Under the pieces are notes generated by a model that saw only the letters and a program-made list of their open reading frames with translations, did not search any database and had not been told where the DNA came from. A program made the position numbers and the translations under genes. A stretch of 64,000 nucleotides of DNA. Source: a virus. The stretch is taken from positions 32,001-96,000 of the IMG/VR virus record IMGVR_UViG_3300025108_000015; one strand, 5' to 3'. Shown one piece after another: positions 31,948 through 64,000 of the stretch (its first letter is position 1; every line of letters begins with the position of its first letter).

Positions 31948-32680
31948 TGCAGGTCGTGGAAGGCACCACGCATACAATTACAGTATTCAATCTTGGCAGA
32001 AGTGGGCTGAGAAAAATAATGCTGAAGTTGTAATTTGGGATACTGCGTTATATACTTGGGAAGAGATGACTATCCCATGGCAACGATATCACTTATTTAA
32101 AATACTTGACCATAACGAGATAGAATTTGACCAAGTTCTAATGGTTGATTCCGATACGATAGTACATCCAGATACACCTAATTTCTTTGAAATGAACGAA
32201 CGTAAGTATACTGGTGTTCTTGATTTGGGGTGTTGGGAATGGACTGGTAGGTCACTAAGACATTACAAAGATATGTTCGATGGTTACAAGCTAGATAGAG
32301 GTATGTACTTTAATGGTGGATTTCAAATTGTAAACGAATCCCATAGAGAATTCTTTGATTACGTATTAGACTTTTATTTTAAAAATCAAGATACTTTGGT
32401 AGAAAAGCAAAAAGCAGGATTGGGTACTGACCAAACTGTTATAAACTATCTGATACAAACTCAAGGAATTGATTTGAAGATGTTACCTGCCACATTCAAT
32501 CTACATCATATGTCGAGTAAGAACCTACTTAACTTTGGCCAATCGTGGTGGGGTGATAGTATGGATAATCTATACGAACAAGCGTGGGTATATCATTTTA
32601 ATGCAATTCCTAAAAATGGATTGAATAGAAACTCATCATACTTTATAAAAAGAGCATACGAGGAATTATGGGGAGAATAG
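31913..32680 (+). CDS. GT8-like / nucleotide-diphospho-sugar transferase
   Basis: VDSD (DxD), YFNGG, DQT.IN, HFN. Confidence 0.65.
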   Translation: MKKNIIFIPAIDAGRGRHHAYNYSIQSWQKWAEKNNAEVVIWDTALYTWEEMTIPWQRYHLFKILDHNEIEFDQVLMVDSDTIVHPDTPNFFEMNERKYTGVLDLGCWEWTGRSLRHYKDMFDGYKLDRGMYFNGGFQIVNESHREFFDYVLDFYFKNQDTLVEKQKAGLGTDQTVINYLIQTQGIDLKMLPATFNLHHMSSKNLLNFGQSWWGDSMDNLYEQAWVYHFNAIPKNGLNRNSSYFIKRAYEELWGE

Positions 32681-47460: not shown

Positions 47461-48107
47461 TGAACTACTCACATAAACATAAGTTTGTATGGGTTGCGCC
47501 ATTTAAGGTAGCAAGTAGGGCAACTGCAGATTTCTTTAGAGAACACTCAGACCTAAATCCTCACCTACCAAATAAAGATAATCCTGGTATGATATTCACC
47601 CATACTCAAGGATGGCCTGAAGAATGTCCGAGTGATTACTCATACATTGTGAATGTCAGACATCCATATTATAGGTGGATTTCGTATTGGAAGCATGACC
47701 TAAACGACACTACCGAATTAAAACCCAATACACCAGACCCATTAACAGCACTCAAGAGTGTTACTGATGAGAGGTGTATGGCTTGGTCCGAGTGGAGAAT
47801 TATATCAGATTACCCAATTGACTATATCCTTCACGCGGAATCAGTAGAAGACGACCTTCGTAAACTTCCATTCGTGGATGATGATATGGAGATTAAGTTC
47901 ACTCGTAGTAATCGAAGACCCACACAAATACCATTGGGTACAACTTGGGATGAGGAAGAACTCAGAGAGTTGGTATATGATAGATTCAGGCAAGACTATG
48001 ATAATTTAGGATATGGTAAGTGGGATAACTACGACCACATTTGGGATTGTAGTCCAAAGACTGGCGCAAACATCAGGTCAGTCAAAACTTTCCCAACAAA
48101 AATTTAA
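47460..48107 (+). CDS. Sulfotransferase (Sulfotransfer_2-like)
   Basis: F.W.APFKVASR (5'-PSB-like), VRHPY.RWISYW (3'-PB-like); GTG start. Confidence 0.65.
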   Translation: MNYSHKHKFVWVAPFKVASRATADFFREHSDLNPHLPNKDNPGMIFTHTQGWPEECPSDYSYIVNVRHPYYRWISYWKHDLNDTTELKPNTPDPLTALKSVTDERCMAWSEWRIISDYPIDYILHAESVEDDLRKLPFVDDDMEIKFTRSNRRPTQIPLGTTWDEEELRELVYDRFRQDYDNLGYGKWDNYDHIWDCSPKTGANIRSVKTFPTKI

Positions 48108-48159
48108 CAATTTCTTAACATTAAAAGCTTGTGTAACTACTACTTTTTCACTATATTTA
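48104..48159 (+). promoter_or_regulatory. Promoter with TTAACA direct repeat
   Basis: TTAACA 48104/48115; CTTG(48128)-N20-TATATTTA(48152). Confidence 0.7.
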
Positions 48160-48187
48160 CTATGTAATAATGAGAGAGATAAAGCTT

Positions 48188-48418
48188 ATGACAATTAAAG
48201 AATTTTACTTAGACAACTACCCAAGTGATGAGTTGGGTAATGAGATTAACGAGAACTCAACCTTCGTTGGGTTACTTTGGATGTTACAAACCAAACGTTC
48301 TGTCTACGACTTTCTTGGAATCTCCGATACTATTGTCAGAGAACGAGTGTTTCAAGAGTTGGCAAAACAGCTTCGATTAAGTTACACCACCATCTACGAG
48401 ATGTGGTTGAAAGCTTAA
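48188..48418 (+). CDS. Hypothetical early-type protein
   Basis: Follows its own promoter; alternative start 48170. Confidence 0.55.
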   Translation: MTIKEFYLDNYPSDELGNEINENSTFVGLLWMLQTKRSVYDFLGISDTIVRERVFQELAKQLRLSYTTIYEMWLKA

Positions 48419-48470
48419 CAATTTCTTAACATTAAACATTTGGTGATATCAAAAATTATCACTATATTAG
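48415..48470 (+). promoter_or_regulatory. Promoter with TTAACA direct repeat
   Basis: TTAACA 48415/48426; TTTG(48439)-N20-TATATTAG(48463). Confidence 0.8.
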
Positions 48471-48498
48471 TACTGTAATAATAAGAGATATAAAAGTT

Positions 48499-49044
48499 AT
48501 GAAGAAAGAAAATCCAAACATCCAAGTTGACTTCCAAGGAGTCCGTTACAACGTTCGTAAGACTGCTCTAAGAACTTACACCTATGGTGAGAACGAAGGT
48601 AGTAGGTATTTGAATATTGGGCCAACTGAGGGTGGTCAGATGACTAAACAATACGTTAAGACCATCAACAAGAACTACCTTTGTAAGGTCAAAGCAGAAC
48701 ACTTTAGTATGGGTAACTCACTAAATGTTTATGTGACTATGAAAGATGGGTCACCAATTCCACAAGAAGACTTTAATAAAATCAAAGACTTTGTTGAGAT
48801 GTTCAAGTATGGTAGTTTCAATGGTATGATTGATATGTACGAAACTCGAAACGCAAGTTACGAAACCGACAACGGAAACCACATTGAGGGTGGATGTAAA
48901 TACACCCACGTTAGTAACACACCACGATTCGGAACAGTTGAGTGGATTGTCAATGAGGTAACGAATCTTGGTAGAACTCTTGAGGATACTACACAATACG
49001 TTTCTAACAAAAAGATTGTTGAAAGAGCAGTGGCTCAACTTTAA
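48499..49044 (+). CDS. LPD29-like (large polyvalent protein domain) protein
   Basis: V....FSMG.SL.V...F.YGSFNGMID.YE pattern. Confidence 0.55.
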   Translation: MKKENPNIQVDFQGVRYNVRKTALRTYTYGENEGSRYLNIGPTEGGQMTKQYVKTINKNYLCKVKAEHFSMGNSLNVYVTMKDGSPIPQEDFNKIKDFVEMFKYGSFNGMIDMYETRNASYETDNGNHIEGGCKYTHVSNTPRFGTVEWIVNEVTNLGRTLEDTTQYVSNKKIVERAVAQL

Positions 49045-49096
49045 CAATTTCTTAACATTAAAAGTTTGGTGGTTGACTAAATAATCACTATATTAG
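49041..49096 (+). promoter_or_regulatory. Promoter with TTAACA direct repeat
   Basis: TTAACA 49041/49052; TTTG(49065)-N20-TATATTAG(49089). Confidence 0.8.
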
Positions 49097-49106
49097 TACT
49101 GTAATA

Positions 49107-49298
49107 ATGAGAGATATGATAAATAAAATTGATTTTAAGTTTTTAGTTGCTTCTTTAATGTTTTTAAGTTTGGGTGTATTAACACTTAATGGTAACATTC
49201 AAAACTACGTTCACTTCCAAGACCCCTTAAACGAAATGGGATTTGCATTCTTAGGGTTTTTCGGTGGTGTTTTATTCGCATTAGGTATTAAAAAATAA
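49107..49298 (+). CDS. Small two-TM membrane protein
   Basis: Two hydrophobic segments; alternative start 49116. Confidence 0.55.
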   Translation: MRDMINKIDFKFLVASLMFLSLGVLTLNGNIQNYVHFQDPLNEMGFAFLGFFGGVLFALGIKK

Positions 49299-60992: not shown

Positions 60993-61013
60993 ACCCCTTT
61001 ATAGGGGTTTTTT
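60993..61013 (+). terminator. Rho-independent terminator
   Basis: ACCCCT-TTAT-AGGGGT hairpin followed by TTTTT, at the end of the gene block. Confidence 0.7.
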
Positions 61014-61019
61014 ATGCCT

Positions 61020-61620
61020 ATAAGGGTAATGATTACTCTTGTGGTCCGTACAAGGGTAAAATAACTACACATTTACCCCCACTTTCCCCCACTTTACCAC
61101 ATTTTCTATCAGTCACTTAACAAAATGTGTAGTTTTTAAACAATGTGTTAGATTTATAACAAAATGTAAGGATAGTAACACATACCCCTCTCAGCCCTCA
61201 ATCATTCATTTTTACCACAATTAACACAAACACACTTTCAGAAAAGGATACTATTACTTAACTACCACAAATTAGACTGGTATTATGTGTCTTTCGCGCG
61301 AGCAAGCAAAATTTCTGACAGGAAAGTTATTAACAGCCCTTTGTGGATAACTTTTTAGGGGTAAAATGTGGGTAGTCCGAGCCACCAAGCCTGAATATTG
61401 ACCATATATTAACATTTGTTAATAGACTTACAATGGTTAGCCGCGACTTACAAATGAAACAAAGTGTTACAATTGTAACTATTAAAGTTATTAACAATGG
61501 GATGTGGATAACTTAATGGCTAAATATTTGGCAATGTGGGTTATTTTTCGTATCTTAGTGGGGGGGTATATATAAAAAAAATAGTTAACAAATGTTAATT
61601 CCTCTCAACCCTAGTGTTTA
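61020..61620. other. Non-coding region with paired DnaA boxes; candidate replication origin
   Basis: TGTGGATAA at 61342 and 61503, each 6 nt after GTTATTAACA (61326, 61487); palindromes at 61407-61424 and 61466-61479. Confidence 0.55.
61527..61558 (+). promoter_or_regulatory. Promoter-like motif with no obvious ORF directly downstream
   Basis: TTTG(61527)-N20-TATCTTAG(61551). Confidence 0.55.
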
Positions 61621-61666
61621 CAGGGGTTAACGAATGATTTAGAATCGTTCTATATAAGGTGAATGG

Positions 61667-61698
61667 CTTGGATATTAAAGAATATTGTTGTATCTTAG
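61667..61698 (+). promoter_or_regulatory. Bacteroidota sigma70-like promoter
   Basis: CTTG(61667)-N20-TATCTTAG(61691). Confidence 0.6.
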
Positions 61699-61702
61699 TA
61701 GT

Positions 61703-61885
61703 ATGTTAAAAGATATAAAGGTTAAATACAATTCAAGATTAAAGAGTGTTTCATTTACTAAGGAGTCATCTATCACTGATGAGGAGTTAGAGACGTGTAT
61801 GGGGTATCTTTATTGGAGGTTTCGTAAAGAAGCTAATGATAGTGAGTTCTCTGATGATGGTAAAAAGCTAATATTAAAGATGTAA
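61703..61885 (+). CDS. Small hypothetical protein
   Basis: ATG 4 nt after the promoter. Confidence 0.5.
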   Translation: MLKDIKVKYNSRLKSVSFTKESSITDEELETCMGYLYWRFRKEANDSEFSDDGKKLILKM

Positions 61886-61896
61886 TTGTTAATAAC

Positions 61897-61952
61897 TTAA
61901 CGATTTCTTAACATATACAATTTGGCAATCCCAAACTTTATCACTATATTAG
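61897..61952 (+). promoter_or_regulatory. Promoter with TTAAC(G/A) direct repeat
   Basis: TTAACG 61897, TTAACA 61908; TTTG(61921)-N20-TATATTAG(61945). Confidence 0.75.
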
Positions 61953-61985
61953 TAGTGTAAGAGTGAGAGAGTTAAAAGATATAAG

Positions 61986-62147
61986 ATGATATTACGAGGA
62001 TTAATGATGTGTCAGATAGTTGATGGGAGTGGAATCCCAGTTAATAATGTAATCTATGAGGATTACGAAAAGGCTAAAGAGCATTGTAATAACTTGATGG
62101 AGAACTACACCGAGTACTACGGAGTAAGAATACTAACCATTAAGTAA
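61986..62147 (+). CDS. 53-aa hypothetical protein; missed by ORF track
   Basis: Follows the promoter and a GA-rich leader. Confidence 0.45.
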   Translation: MILRGLMMCQIVDGSGIPVNNVIYEDYEKAKEHCNNLMENYTEYYGVRILTIK

Positions 62148-62290
62148 GGTATATGGATGTACAAGAGCAAGTTTATTGGTGTGACCTATGTGAGTGTTAC
62201 TCAACCATATCAGAAGATAACCCGTGGGGTACTTGTTTGTGTTCGTGAAATAAAAGTGAAGTAAAATAATAATAGCTAAATATATAGTAT

Positions 62291-62494
62291 ATGAGAAGAG
62301 AGTATAGTAATGGGTATATACCCAAGATAGAGTATTGGAATGGTAAACTACAATATGCCATTAGTCAAAACAATTGGGTAGAGGTAGAGTATTGTATGAA
62401 GAAGATGAACCACTTCGTTTCTCGTCAGTATGTAATAGAGAACCAACAACCCTTCACCCCAGGCGTGAATGGCGCTCCCACCTTTCAGTTATAA
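62291..62494 (+). CDS. Small protein, paralog A (GYIPKI.YW family)
   Basis: Shares Y..GYIPKI.YW...KMN.F..R with 63361-63528. Confidence 0.6.
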   Translation: MRREYSNGYIPKIEYWNGKLQYAISQNNWVEVEYCMKKMNHFVSRQYVIENQQPFTPGVNGAPTFQL

Positions 62495-62521
62495 AGAGAA
62501 GAGACCTCTAATTAAGTTAAT

Positions 62522-62559
62522 CTAAGCCGTTCCACCCCCGTAAACCATTATAGGTGATG
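62522..62559 (+). repeat. 38-bp exact direct repeat, copy 1 (candidate structured RNA)
   Basis: CTAAGCCGTTCCACCCCCGTAAACCATTATAGGTGATG. Confidence 0.85.
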
Positions 62560-62615
62560 TATGGAGATGTACCAAGTAAGGTGGACTGGTTAAAACAAAT
62601 ACACGAGAGAAAGCT

Positions 62616-62768
62616 ATGAACAAGATGAATCAATTCCTACGCATTGCAAATGCGAGACTCAAAAAGACATACCCTAACAAGATGCAGAGAAAGTCTTGGG
62701 CTGCTAATATGTATGCGAGATGGATAGAGCGCAAAACCTTTAATGATACAAGTAAGGGTATAAACTGA
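62616..62768 (+). CDS. 50-aa basic hypothetical protein; missed by ORF track
   Basis: MNKMNQFLRIANARLKKTYP...; AAGCTATG start context. Confidence 0.5.
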   Translation: MNKMNQFLRIANARLKKTYPNKMQRKSWAANMYARWIERKTFNDTSKGIN

Positions 62769-62802
62769 CCTTTAATGATACATTGTAAGGCTATAGCTTG
62801 AC
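62736..62802. repeat. Tandem ~32-bp hairpin-forming repeat (2 copies)
   Basis: ACCTTTAATGATACA at 62736 and 62768, each followed by GTAAGG.TATA..TGAC. Confidence 0.7.
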
Positions 62803-62822
62803 ACTTTTAAAACAAACGAGAA

Positions 62823-63092
62823 ATGAAAACACCAATGCAAAAACTAATTGAAGTGCTGAAAGTCCATAGAGATACGGCATTTGAAAAGGAGAAACAATAC
62901 GAAGACCTTGTATTGACTGAATACTATGAAGGCAGAGCAAAGGCATTTGAAGATGCTATAAGTTTTGCGGAACTACACCTTGAGAAAGAGAAAGATGTGA
63001 TGTGCGACTTTGCAGATGACTATCAAAGGAACTGCTTCCAAAAATCAGCAGATGACTACTTTGAGGAAACCTTTAAAAAAAAAGAGAAATGA
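62823..63092 (+). CDS. MKTPMQ-family small phage protein, paralog A
   Basis: MKTPMQKLIE...EKEK..M...F..KEK. Confidence 0.6.
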   Translation: MKTPMQKLIEVLKVHRDTAFEKEKQYEDLVLTEYYEGRAKAFEDAISFAELHLEKEKDVMCDFADDYQRNCFQKSADDYFEETFKKKEK

Positions 63093-63334
63093 AAACACCA
63101 ATGCAAGAGTTGATTGAGCAACTTGAAAAAGAACACAAGAGATTTTTAGAGGAAGATGATGTGCCTAATTGGTTCTACAAAAACGGAATAAAACAAGCAA
63201 TCAAATACGCTGAATCAATGCTTGATAAAGAGAAAGAGGTGATGGAGTCTGCTTGGCAAGATGGTATGTATGAATGTGACGGAGACGGAACATTTGAAGA
63301 TTTCTACAAAACCTTTAACACCAAAGAGAAATAA
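63089..63334 (+). CDS. MKTPMQ-family small phage protein, paralog B
   Basis: MKTPMQELIE...DKEKE.M...F..KEK. Confidence 0.6.
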   Translation: MKTPMQELIEQLEKEHKRFLEEDDVPNWFYKNGIKQAIKYAESMLDKEKEVMESAWQDGMYECDGDGTFEDFYKTFNTKEK

Positions 63335-63360
63335 AATAATAATTGCTAAATAAGTAGTAT

Positions 63361-63528
63361 ATGAAGTATACACAAGGGTATATCCCAAAAATTAAGTACT
63401 GGTACGGAGTACTAAAGACAGCCGAAGGAGCAACGGCTATGAATCATGCTCTGAGTAAGATGAACTACTTCCAAAATAGACACTATGAAGTGTATGGGGA
63501 GTGGATATCAGTAGATGACCTTATCTAA
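63361..63528 (+). CDS. 55-aa protein, paralog B (GYIPKI.YW family); missed by ORF track
   Basis: My translation: MKYTQGYIPKIKYWYGVLKTAEGATAMNHALSKMNYFQNRHYEVYGEWISVDDLI. Confidence 0.6.
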   Translation: MKYTQGYIPKIKYWYGVLKTAEGATAMNHALSKMNYFQNRHYEVYGEWISVDDLI

Positions 63529-63532
63529 GGAA

Positions 63533-63570
63533 CTAAGCCGTTCCACCCCCGTAAACCATTATAGGTGATG
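63533..63570 (+). repeat. 38-bp exact direct repeat, copy 2
   Basis: Identical to 62522-62559. Confidence 0.85.
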
Positions 63571-63792
63571 AAAGAGACTCGTGTGGGGGGTGGGGGCATT
63601 TTAACGTAACCCTCTAGCAATCAAGCTGTTAGAAGGGGCTGGGGTCGGTTTTCCTATCGAGCCTGGTTTTTTTGGATGGAAAAGAAGTCCCCTCCACGCT
63701 TGGATACACCAAAGTGAGATGATATTAAAATACCTAATGTTAATATATGGGTAATACTTGTTAATAACCTGTCAATACTTTCAGAGATATTG

Positions 63793-63824
63793 TTTGGTTA
63801 TACAAGTATATTGTTGTATATTAG
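63793..63824 (+). promoter_or_regulatory. Bacteroidota sigma70-like promoter
   Basis: TTTG(63793)-N20-TATATTAG(63817). Confidence 0.75.
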
Positions 63825-63847
63825 TAGAGTAATAAGAGATAAGAGTT

Positions 63848-64000
63848 ATGACGTATTTAATTGACCCACAAGATTTAGTCCTTAGAGCATGGACACGTAT
63901 TAAAGGTTTCAATGACATGGTTATTGGTAACGACATTGAATCACACACACTATTAGAACTAGCAACTGAGGTTTCTGAAGAGTGGACTAACGATTGGGAT
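63848..64000 (+). CDS. Hypothetical protein (3'-truncated by window edge)
   Basis: GAGTTATG start; frame open to the end of the window. Confidence 0.5.
   Translation, partial: MTYLIDPQDLVLRAWTRIKGFNDMVIGNDIESHTLLELATEVSEEWTNDWD

Follow-up and report, generated by a model that had tools for sequence, protein, structure and literature searches.

A 38-bp direct repeat in the genome of a T4-like phage is very probably the scar of a recombination event, and the microprotein gene and non-coding element with which it is associated very probably form a conserved module; the repeat by itself is ordinary mosaicism. The DNA analysed, hereafter the window, is a stretch of 64,000 nucleotides from the IMG/VR virus record IMGVR_UViG_3300025108_000015 (positions 32,001 to 96,000). 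The phage genome, in whose record the window occupies bases 32095-96094, is 172,976 bp in length, T4-like and of an aquatic Bacteroidota-type composition, and within the window the G+C content is 33-38% and almost every gene lies on the same strand. Its closest cultured relatives are T4-like Flavobacterium myoviruses, with merely ~68% identity over glycosyltransferase genes. An earlier note on this DNA had described a duplicated cassette, in which a 32-nt leader precedes each of two GYIPKI.YW paralogues and an exact 38-mer follows each paralogue, and this description held throughout. Exactly two copies of the 38-mer (CTAAGCC...GGTGATG) are present, at 62522-62559 and 63533-63570 with a spacing of 1011 nt; no further copies were detected in the whole genome even when up to 3 mismatches were allowed, and no comparable exact match arose in any of 100 shuffles. 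The leaders are 29/32 identical over the span first described, a similarity that extends to 37/42 (62253-62294 against 63323-63364). The 38-mers are identical while the microproteins have diverged, these having GYIPKIxYW in common and 35% identity overall.

The second 38-mer is the first part of a longer non-coding element of ~190 nt, and comprises the 5' strand of a helix, P1, together with the first 8 nt of an invariant 20-mer core. A metagenome scan with this core, two positions being left free, retrieved 66 loci, of which ~45, from marine, estuarine and freshwater sampling sites, are true relatives; the absence of other homologues, which had been named as grounds for abandoning the RNA proposal, was not borne out. 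Whole elements number one per genome. Their parts are ordered as 5' AAGCC, a C-rich arm, the core GGTGATGAAAGAnACTCGTG, a G-run, a middle of ~80 nt, AAAGTCCCCTCC and a last hairpin; the middle is constant in length and contains a hairpin and T-run in most members, and the block that reads AAAGTCCCCTCC in most relatives and GAAGTCCCCTCC in the window is invariant among 36 aligned sequences. Flanks and central 20-mer are conserved in the relatives, and the parts between them vary but remain complementary (CCCCTCGC/GCGAGGGG and CCCCTCAC/GTGAGGGG, with CCACCCCC/GGGGGTGG in the window). The same 38 nt recur unaltered in all other copies of this RNA subtype that were seen, namely those of the sister phage (G001) and of loci L052, L056, L060, L069 and L093, save for a single change in L053, and they stand behind three different microprotein types. 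The two 38-mers of the window are therefore identical because the RNA gene is conserved across the phage population, rather than through a constraint specific to this genome.

Evidence for a folded RNA was obtained from two helices. In a gapless alignment (n=24), 79.5% of P1 cells were paired compared with 72.7% in shuffles, and covariation was 0.252 compared with 0.131; none of 500 shuffles reached the observed value and every slid register scored worse. In shifted-register subtypes one P1 pair alternates between G-C, G-U and A-U, indicating that the + strand is the folded strand. A covariance model of the 5' hairpin, R1, matched 51 loci at 37-86 bits, including loci with wholly different stems (CTGACTGAT/ATTAGTTAG, TCGGT/ACCGA and AGGC/GCCT), and in the R1 alignment of 43 distinct sequences the four inner P1 positions kept their pairing in 97-100% of cases, each pair having undergone 5-7 double changes. 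The motif concerned, P1 enclosing ..TAAG.C....A.AGGTGATGAAAGAnACTCG.G.., is present in copy 2 (76.6 bits) and not in copy 1 (15.4 bits, E 0.09). Pairing in the 3' hairpin is likewise kept across at least six stems, such as CCCGTG/CACGGG, GTCGTA/TACGAC, CCCGAA/TTCGGG and TTGG/CCAA. Covariation, which had been proposed as a test of the element, thus supports P1 and the 3' hairpin, but not helices in the middle. The G-run is able to pair with either the 5' C-arm or the invariant CCCCTCC block, between which covariation cannot choose because all of the bases concerned are invariant.

The element did not correspond to any established RNA family. Comparison with Rfam, which had also been proposed, gave no match at gathering thresholds across the window (Rfam 15), noise only and nothing on the element at E<=10 in the region 62200-63750, and no match at E<=1 in 15 family loci; ARAGORN detected no tRNA or tmRNA. 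No DNA match to the element was found in cultured phages, and the core pattern had 9 matches in 185,579 prokaryote genomes, all lacking the flanks and unlike the element, several of which read as protein-coding by eye. The suggestion of a ribozyme or antitoxin RNA was not upheld, no Rfam family, ribozyme signature or antitoxin signature having been found. Hammerhead, twister, C/D-box/k-turn, RNase P CR-I (AAAGUCC) and group I/II cores were rejected as their required partner elements were absent by eye and Rfam gave none. A type III toxin-antitoxin system (ToxIN-like) was also rejected: each genome has one RNA element, the repeat is a truncated copy 1 kb away, and the microproteins have no PADLOC match. 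An open reading frame (ORF) from the ATG within the core was rejected as coding, since it is uninterrupted in some members but meets stops in others, and since G-run lengths differ by non-multiples of three. Base pairing between leader and element, checked by eye, was not conserved. A T-run follows the terminator-like hairpin in most relatives and is absent in L051; a terminator consensus scan of 61000-64000 called none, the 10-nt loop of the hairpin at 63639-63673 exceeding the 8-nt limit of the scan. Distant subfamilies end in canonical terminators.

The normal unit, judging from ~45 related contigs, consists of a leader, a GY[IL]PKIxYW gene and the ~190-nt element. Module 2 (63323-~63720) is whole, and module 1 keeps its leader and gene, its RNA part being cut after ..AGGTGATG, which leaves copy 1 without 12 of the 20 invariant bases of the core. 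Beyond ..AGGTGATG the sequence switches, after GTGATG, to HNH homology and reads YGDVPSKVDWLKQIHERKL-stop, overlapping the start of gene A. With a slash marking the junction, the RNA gene reads GTAAACCATTATAGGTGATG/AAAGAG, the HNH gene GTAGACCATGTCATGTGATG/CATGGAGATG and the window GTAAACCATTATAGGTGATG/TATGGAGATG, from which the copy-1 junction is apparently a crossover at the 6-nt microhomology GTGATG, within a look-alike patch of 15/20 nt. Donor-type HNH proteins end in ..HGDVPSKVDWLKQIHERKL-stop or ..KYGDVPDRVQWLKDIHEQRM.. and match Pfam HNH, and the C-terminus of the remnant agrees with theirs residue for residue. In the donor proteins, 81-85 aa in length, the Pfam domain spans residues 22-64; hardly any of it is left in the window remnant, in which an intact HNH homing endonuclease cassette was consequently not found, only ~20 terminal codons being present.

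The DNA between the modules is likewise foreign. Gene A has 59 homologues, the closest of which outside the lineage lie directly behind a 77-85-aa HNH gene on ~20-30-kb contigs that also encode DNA methylase, ParB, Mom and terminase, and none of the 86 HNH/gene-A loci examined (L098-L183) carries the RNA motifs. Different parts of the block resemble different loci, with DNA identities of 90% for 62555-62731 (L162-L164), 84% for 62800-62990 (L122), 78% for 63060-63336 (L124) and 99% for 63218-63332 (L098/L101), whilst the starts of B1 and B2 are 85% identical over 52 nt. The block ends on the right in the junction motif ..TTTAACACCAAAGAGAAAT[G/A]A, which encodes ..TFNTKEK-stop and is common to many such small genes. 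Searches of A, B1 and B2 against Pfam, PHROGs and PADLOC gave nothing usable.

Turning to the proteins, ~35 related loci, marine to freshwater, have the leader motif AAAGTGA..TAAAA..TAGCTAAATA..AGTATATG upstream of the microprotein gene; in the window phage genome it occurs only at the two modules. Both window ORFs have the N-terminal motif KYPxGY[IL]PKIxYW and the two-helix hairpin ..F..RQ.., and G8, Y9, K12, I13 and F42 are invariant in their alignment with 26 relatives. A profile search returned 323 microprotein cluster representatives at E<=1e-3. The AlphaFold model of microprotein 1 is a helical hairpin (helices 10-25 and 29-51) with a core pLDDT of ~96. In essentially all main-family loci the element begins 2-30 nt past the stop codon of a GY[IL]PKIxYW gene (51-122 aa), and the microprotein 2 homologues retrieved by protein search (71-93% identical) are all followed by it; in L198 the protein is accompanied by a minimal hairpin and a different 3' part that ends in a canonical terminator. 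The microproteins matched no Pfam, PHROG or PADLOC family, the Foldseek search of the model against the PDB returned generic helical hairpins only (all E>1), the ESM Atlas offered no informative neighbour, and tblastn found no match in cultured phages. The protein-RNA pair thus appears to be unnamed in Rfam, Pfam, PHROGs and PADLOC, a comparison that did not extend to a 2023 survey of viral RNAs (PMC10690425).

With regard to function, we tentatively favour a role in cis, in which the element would be transcribed as the 3' untranslated region (UTR) of the microprotein mRNA and its loop would be recognised by a conserved factor. A 3' UTR is suggested because the element lies on the same strand as the gene, abuts its stop codon, lacks a conserved promoter of its own and ends in terminators in distant members; furthermore, the hairpin loop is conserved far beyond its neighbours and is therefore probably a recognition site. 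The factor might be the host transcription or RNA-processing machinery, or the microprotein, and would set the fate of the transcript through termination, read-through or processing, yielding a stable RNA. It is possible, but on balance unlikely, that the element is instead a stable trans-acting RNA, derived from the 3' UTR or forming a ribonucleoprotein with the microprotein, in which AAAGUCCCCUCC would seed on G-rich Shine-Dalgarno-like sites. In keeping with this, marine and freshwater lineages show no variation in the unpaired blocks, a distant subfamily also has a CU-rich block (CTCTCTCCTATCC), Shine-Dalgarno-like purine runs lie upstream of 26% of the ORFs of this phage compared with a background of 9%, and the pairing with the gene is tight; however, no target was identified, the G-run can pair with the C/U-rich block of the same RNA and thereby mask it, and protein and hairpin do occur apart. 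Somewhat less probable still, we consider, is a broader role for leader, microprotein and hairpin RNA together as an early-gene control or counter-defence module of T4-like aquatic phages. The loop would then be read by conserved host machinery, for example RNA polymerase (as put RNA is) or a ribonuclease. The microprotein, a helical hairpin that is rapidly shuffled, would act as the variable partner facing the host, and the G-run could switch between the 5' C-arm, which is within ribosome reach of the stop codon, and CCCCUCC, coupling translation of the microprotein to the state of the RNA. What probability remains falls to an operator for the microprotein or to some further possibility.

Several observations weigh against reading the repeat as a scar within a conserved protein-RNA module. 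Protein and hairpin are separable, in that L194 and L196 have the protein without the hairpin, and in L037 and L044 the ORFs that precede the hairpin are small and unrelated. The family was gathered with a pattern that fixes the 20-mer, such that the invariance of the core is partly by construction. Covariation of P1 is good but not overwhelming evidence, coming from few independent lineages and one alignment fitted to the model. No consistent helices were detected in the central ~80 nt by RNAalifold on a MAFFT alignment, by averaged pair probabilities or by column covariation of the gapless central 105 nt, where a signal at (70,87) probably stems from one subfamily; the conservation could therefore reside partly in the DNA, and the presumed RNA nature of the element depends on the strand-specific covariation of two helices only. 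Finally, a parent with the order HNH-A-B1-B2-leader-microprotein 2 was not found, none of the 15 single-module loci compared matching B2, and the tandem form may have arisen either in one three-way event or by insertion into an older duplication.

The history of the tandem form can nevertheless be followed in part through related phages. The sister phage G001 is a 172,940-bp record with ~97% identity over most of its length, in which the sequences equivalent to 62142-62559 and 63533-63798 of the window overlap by exactly one 38-mer, the intervening 1011 bp being absent; its microprotein 1 gene shows 6 synonymous and 4 non-synonymous codon differences. The tandem form itself recurs in assemblies from other samples: an 84.7-kb contig matches it at 100% identity and a second contig at 99.85% as far as 62853, and seven similar contigs were found. 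In single-module phages, the flanks differ by 5-8% from those of the window phage compared with ~3% genome-wide, hence they are not recent deletion derivatives, and the DNA upstream of the microprotein gene in 15 single-module relatives either matches the leader-1 flank or is unrelated. The single module is the common state and the tandem form is derived. The latter would have arisen by illegitimate recombination during co-infection, and the two 38-mers, as well as the two leaders, would now be substrates for homologous deletion. The microprotein genes are mosaic: that of L052 joins a type 1 N-terminus to a type 2 body, which fits recombination between leaders or within the GYIPKI-coding stretch.

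That the 38-mers might constitute a dedicated recombination site (PeSL-like or att-like) mobilising the intervening genes, one form of the recombination site raised in the earlier note, is improbable. PeSL (promoter-early stem-loop) cassettes of T4-type phages combine a promoter with a terminator and occur in many copies (Arbiol et al. 2010 PMC2839356; Comeau et al. 2014 PMC4122927). The likeness is that short direct repeats here bracket small ORFan genes in a hyperplastic T4-like region with several further indels between the two phages, and that the ~97% identical sister differs by exactly the bracketed interval, repeat recombination being the expected route of loss, as PeSL repeats provide in T4-type phages (PMC2839356). 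An indel between sisters that is bounded by repeats, as in PeSL regions, is thus seen (G001, with one 38-mer and without the 1011 bp), but many dispersed copies are not (2 in 172,976 bp with <=3 mismatches), and neither a promoter-like site on the + strand nor a terminator-like site was found inside the 38-mer. Moreover, the 38-mer is not free-standing but the start of a longer conserved RNA-like gene, the left junction fuses it illegitimately to the interior of an HNH gene, no recombinase lies nearby, and the flanks of single-module phages (92-95% identical, against ~97% genome-wide) are not those of recent deletion products. The absence of exactly this interval from the sister phage agrees with what a recombination site predicts, and passive homologous deletion between the 38-mers remains likely.

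A dispersed family of ~70-100-nt repeats fits the PeSL idea better than does the 38-mer. These number at least 10 copies of 75-90% identity, are intergenic and share a promoter-like core (..TTGTTGTAT[C/A]TTAGTAG..) found also at 61663-61715 and 63789-63841, with copies at 61888-61986, 48094-48505, 49034-49132, 2468-2560 and 66031-66126, and others beyond the window. One copy is located at a 174-bp indel relative to the sister, where a 53-aa ORF (61986-62147) is found only in the window phage.

It is very improbable that there are two functional ~70-nt motifs, one begun by each 38-mer and each with a downstream strand of its own to close it, as had been proposed on the basis of pairings with 62580-62589 and 63586-63595. 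Both pairings can be drawn, and the minimum-energy folds of the 86-nt stretches include them, but the fold energies are no better than those of shuffles (z = -1.05 and -0.64). Whilst the copy-2 helix covaries, the copy-1 partner GGTGGACTGG is HNH coding sequence (codons K-V-D-W), nearly unchanged in the HNH genes of phages without the element, and its pairing is therefore coincidental; the relatives all carry the G-run partner and never the copy-1 type, and copy 1 falls short of copy 2 in core bases and R1 score alike. What survives of the ~70-nt motif is that the 38-mer lies within a conserved, at least partly structured RNA-like element, but not in two motifs whose 3' strands differ. That the arrangement is due to mis-assembly or to a tandem duplication of very recent date is scarcely credible: an exact repeat 1 kb apart can come from a collapsed or expanded assembly, but the microproteins are only 35% identical, the interval is foreign DNA rather than a copy, and the same arrangement exists in the independent assemblies described above.

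Functional analogies may be drawn between the module and several known systems. The nutR of lambda and put of HK022 are cis-acting antitermination RNAs that follow a small early gene and precede a terminator. The order of leader, small gene, structured RNA, hairpin with U-run and further early genes is alike, as are the highly conserved loops, which suggest recognition by a conserved machinery; unlike these systems, the module shows no sequence or structure similarity to them and no N-like protein, and the promoter-like repeat at 63789-63841 follows it, so that read-through is not obviously needed. The element resembles small RNAs derived from bacterial 3' UTRs in starting a few bases past a stop codon, on the same strand and without a conserved promoter of its own, and in the canonical terminators of its distant subfamilies, but it is phage-borne, is much more conserved than the preceding gene and has no known processing site or target. 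Rop (Rom) of ColE1 is a helical-hairpin protein of ~60 aa encoded beside RNA I-RNA II. Here too a ~60-aa helical-hairpin protein adjoins a structured G-run RNA, near an origin-like DnaA-box region (61323-61516), although Rop was not among the Foldseek matches listed (all E > 1) and no kissing-loop partner was identified. These three are functional analogies only. The stable non-coding RNAs rnaC and rnaD of T4 (species 1 and 2) are comparable as unexplained RNAs of a T4-type phage, and a tRNA-Tyr adjoins the module in three relatives, but they have tRNA-like 3' parts (GGTTCGAATCC) and share none of the motifs of the element. The tRNA-Tyr(GTA) genes lie immediately upstream of the leader and microprotein gene (L062 452-535, L075 4840-4923 and L077 2359-2442).

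The microprotein domain (KYPxGYxPKIxxW...F..RQ) also recurs within large polyvalent proteins, a type known from phages and conjugative elements: one of 1170 aa that contains ArdA includes it, and in another it follows an LPD29 domain. It occurs eight times in a 1743-aa STAND-NTPase/LRR protein; the proteins P0082, P0206 and P0215 are STAND-LRR, ArdA polyvalent and LPD29-fused proteins. Unlike in these fusions, the domain is stand-alone in the present family (51-122 aa) and usually coupled to the hairpin, which was absent from the fused forms checked. Its presence in STAND/LRR, ArdA and LPD29 proteins hints at a role in phage-host conflict, and the link to polyvalent anti-restriction proteins gives a testable direction.

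The 38-mer repeat is an unusually clean, base-resolved case of how T4-like hyperplastic regions are built, in that a conserved RNA gene was apparently interrupted at a microhomology of 6 nt and joined there to part of an HNH gene from small phages of another lineage in similar aquatic samples. It led to a conserved pair, a ~190-nt element with an invariant hairpin loop and a microprotein family of at least 323 clusters, in phage contigs of marine, estuarine and freshwater origin. No parts of phage genomes are less well understood than small proteins and non-coding RNAs, and a conserved module of the two is a concrete target for experiment. The features of both modules and of the intervening segment are listed in Table 1.

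Table 1. Features of the duplicated region, in window coordinates
Feature	Position	Strand	Basis or remark
Leader 1, probable promoter/5' UTR	62253-62290	+	37/42 identical to leader 2
Microprotein 1, 67 aa, GYIPKIEYW type	62291-62494	+	ORF kept in G001; AlphaFold helical hairpin
38-mer copy 1, truncated 5' stub (P1 5' strand and 8 core nt)	62522-62559	+	Exact repeat; R1 15.4 bits
HNH endonuclease gene remnant, last ~20 codons (..YGDVPSKVDWLKQIHERKL-stop), holds GGTGGACTGG	62560-62619	+	90% identity over 62555-62731 to L162-L164
Gene A, 47-50 aa	62616-62768	+	Accompanies HNH gene in small unrelated phages
Gene B1, 89 aa	62823-63092	+	ORF; 62800-62990 84% identical to L122
Gene B2, 81 aa, mosaic, right end of foreign segment	63089-63334	+	63218-63332 99% identical to L098/L101
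Leader 2	63323-63360	+	As leader 1
Microprotein 2, 55 aa, GYIPKIKYW type	63361-63528	+	71-93% identical metagenome homologues
Whole non-coding element, ~190 nt	63533-~63720	+	Conservation in ~45 metagenomic loci; opens with 38-mer copy 2
5' hairpin domain: C-rich 5' arm, core GGTGATGAAAGAnACTCGTG (63564-63583), G-run 3' arm (63585-63597)	63538-63601	+	R1 76.6 bits
Terminator-like hairpin CTGGGGTCG / CGAGCCTGG, 9-pair stem with one mismatch, 10-nt loop, then T7	63639-63673	+	By eye
Near-invariant AAGTCCCCTC block (63685-63694) and 3' hairpin	63684-63717	+	Alignment; pairing across stems

Further observations were made on the foreign block. The 115 nt at the 3' end of B2 (63218-63332) that are 99% identical to L098/L101 (2983-3097) connect this 173-kb myovirus with ~30-kb phages of another type, which have DNA methylase, HNH, ParB and terminase genes; such identity points to gene flow and exchange of very recent date between them, and they probably share a host. 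Unrelated small ORFs share the C-terminus ..TFNTKE[KR]-stop with an ATGA stop/start overlap, the next gene often starting with MKTPMQ. The corresponding gene-junction sites of ~35 nt are located at 62800-62840, 63066-63106, 63314-63334 and 64640-64660, in G001 at 75532-75560 and in L098-L103 (both T4-like and ~30-kb phages), and may signal translational coupling while also acting as a linker for recombination. Gene A has at its end a perfect direct repeat of 15 nt (ACCTTTAATGATACA), with copies at 62736-62750 and 62768-62782; the window gene ends in ..TFNDTSKGIN where relatives have ..TFNTKER, and the repeat looks like a small duplication scar altering the C-terminus. Residues 1-25 of B1 (62823-62900) matched PADLOC oligonucleotide-cyclase models (E 4e-5 over 25 residues), a match too short to trust and probably spurious.

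Elsewhere, G001 has an 863-bp insertion with three small ORFs, the last of them B-like (MKTPMQ..FFNTKER), where the window has 30 bp (window 66962-66992 compared with G001 76395-75533). It sits between a promoter-like site and a gene whose product starts with MSIDTTYKNLLVDIMYDGIERD, which we take, as a guess only, to be thymidylate-synthase-like. Upstream of the modules, two TGTGGATAA (DnaA-box complement) modules lie 161 bp apart within 61323-61516, and perfect palindromes (TTAACA-NN-TGTTAA) with repeated half-sites (GTTATTAAC/GTTAATAAC) are found on both sides of the module region (61396-61600 and 63731-63776); these sites look like an operator or origin.

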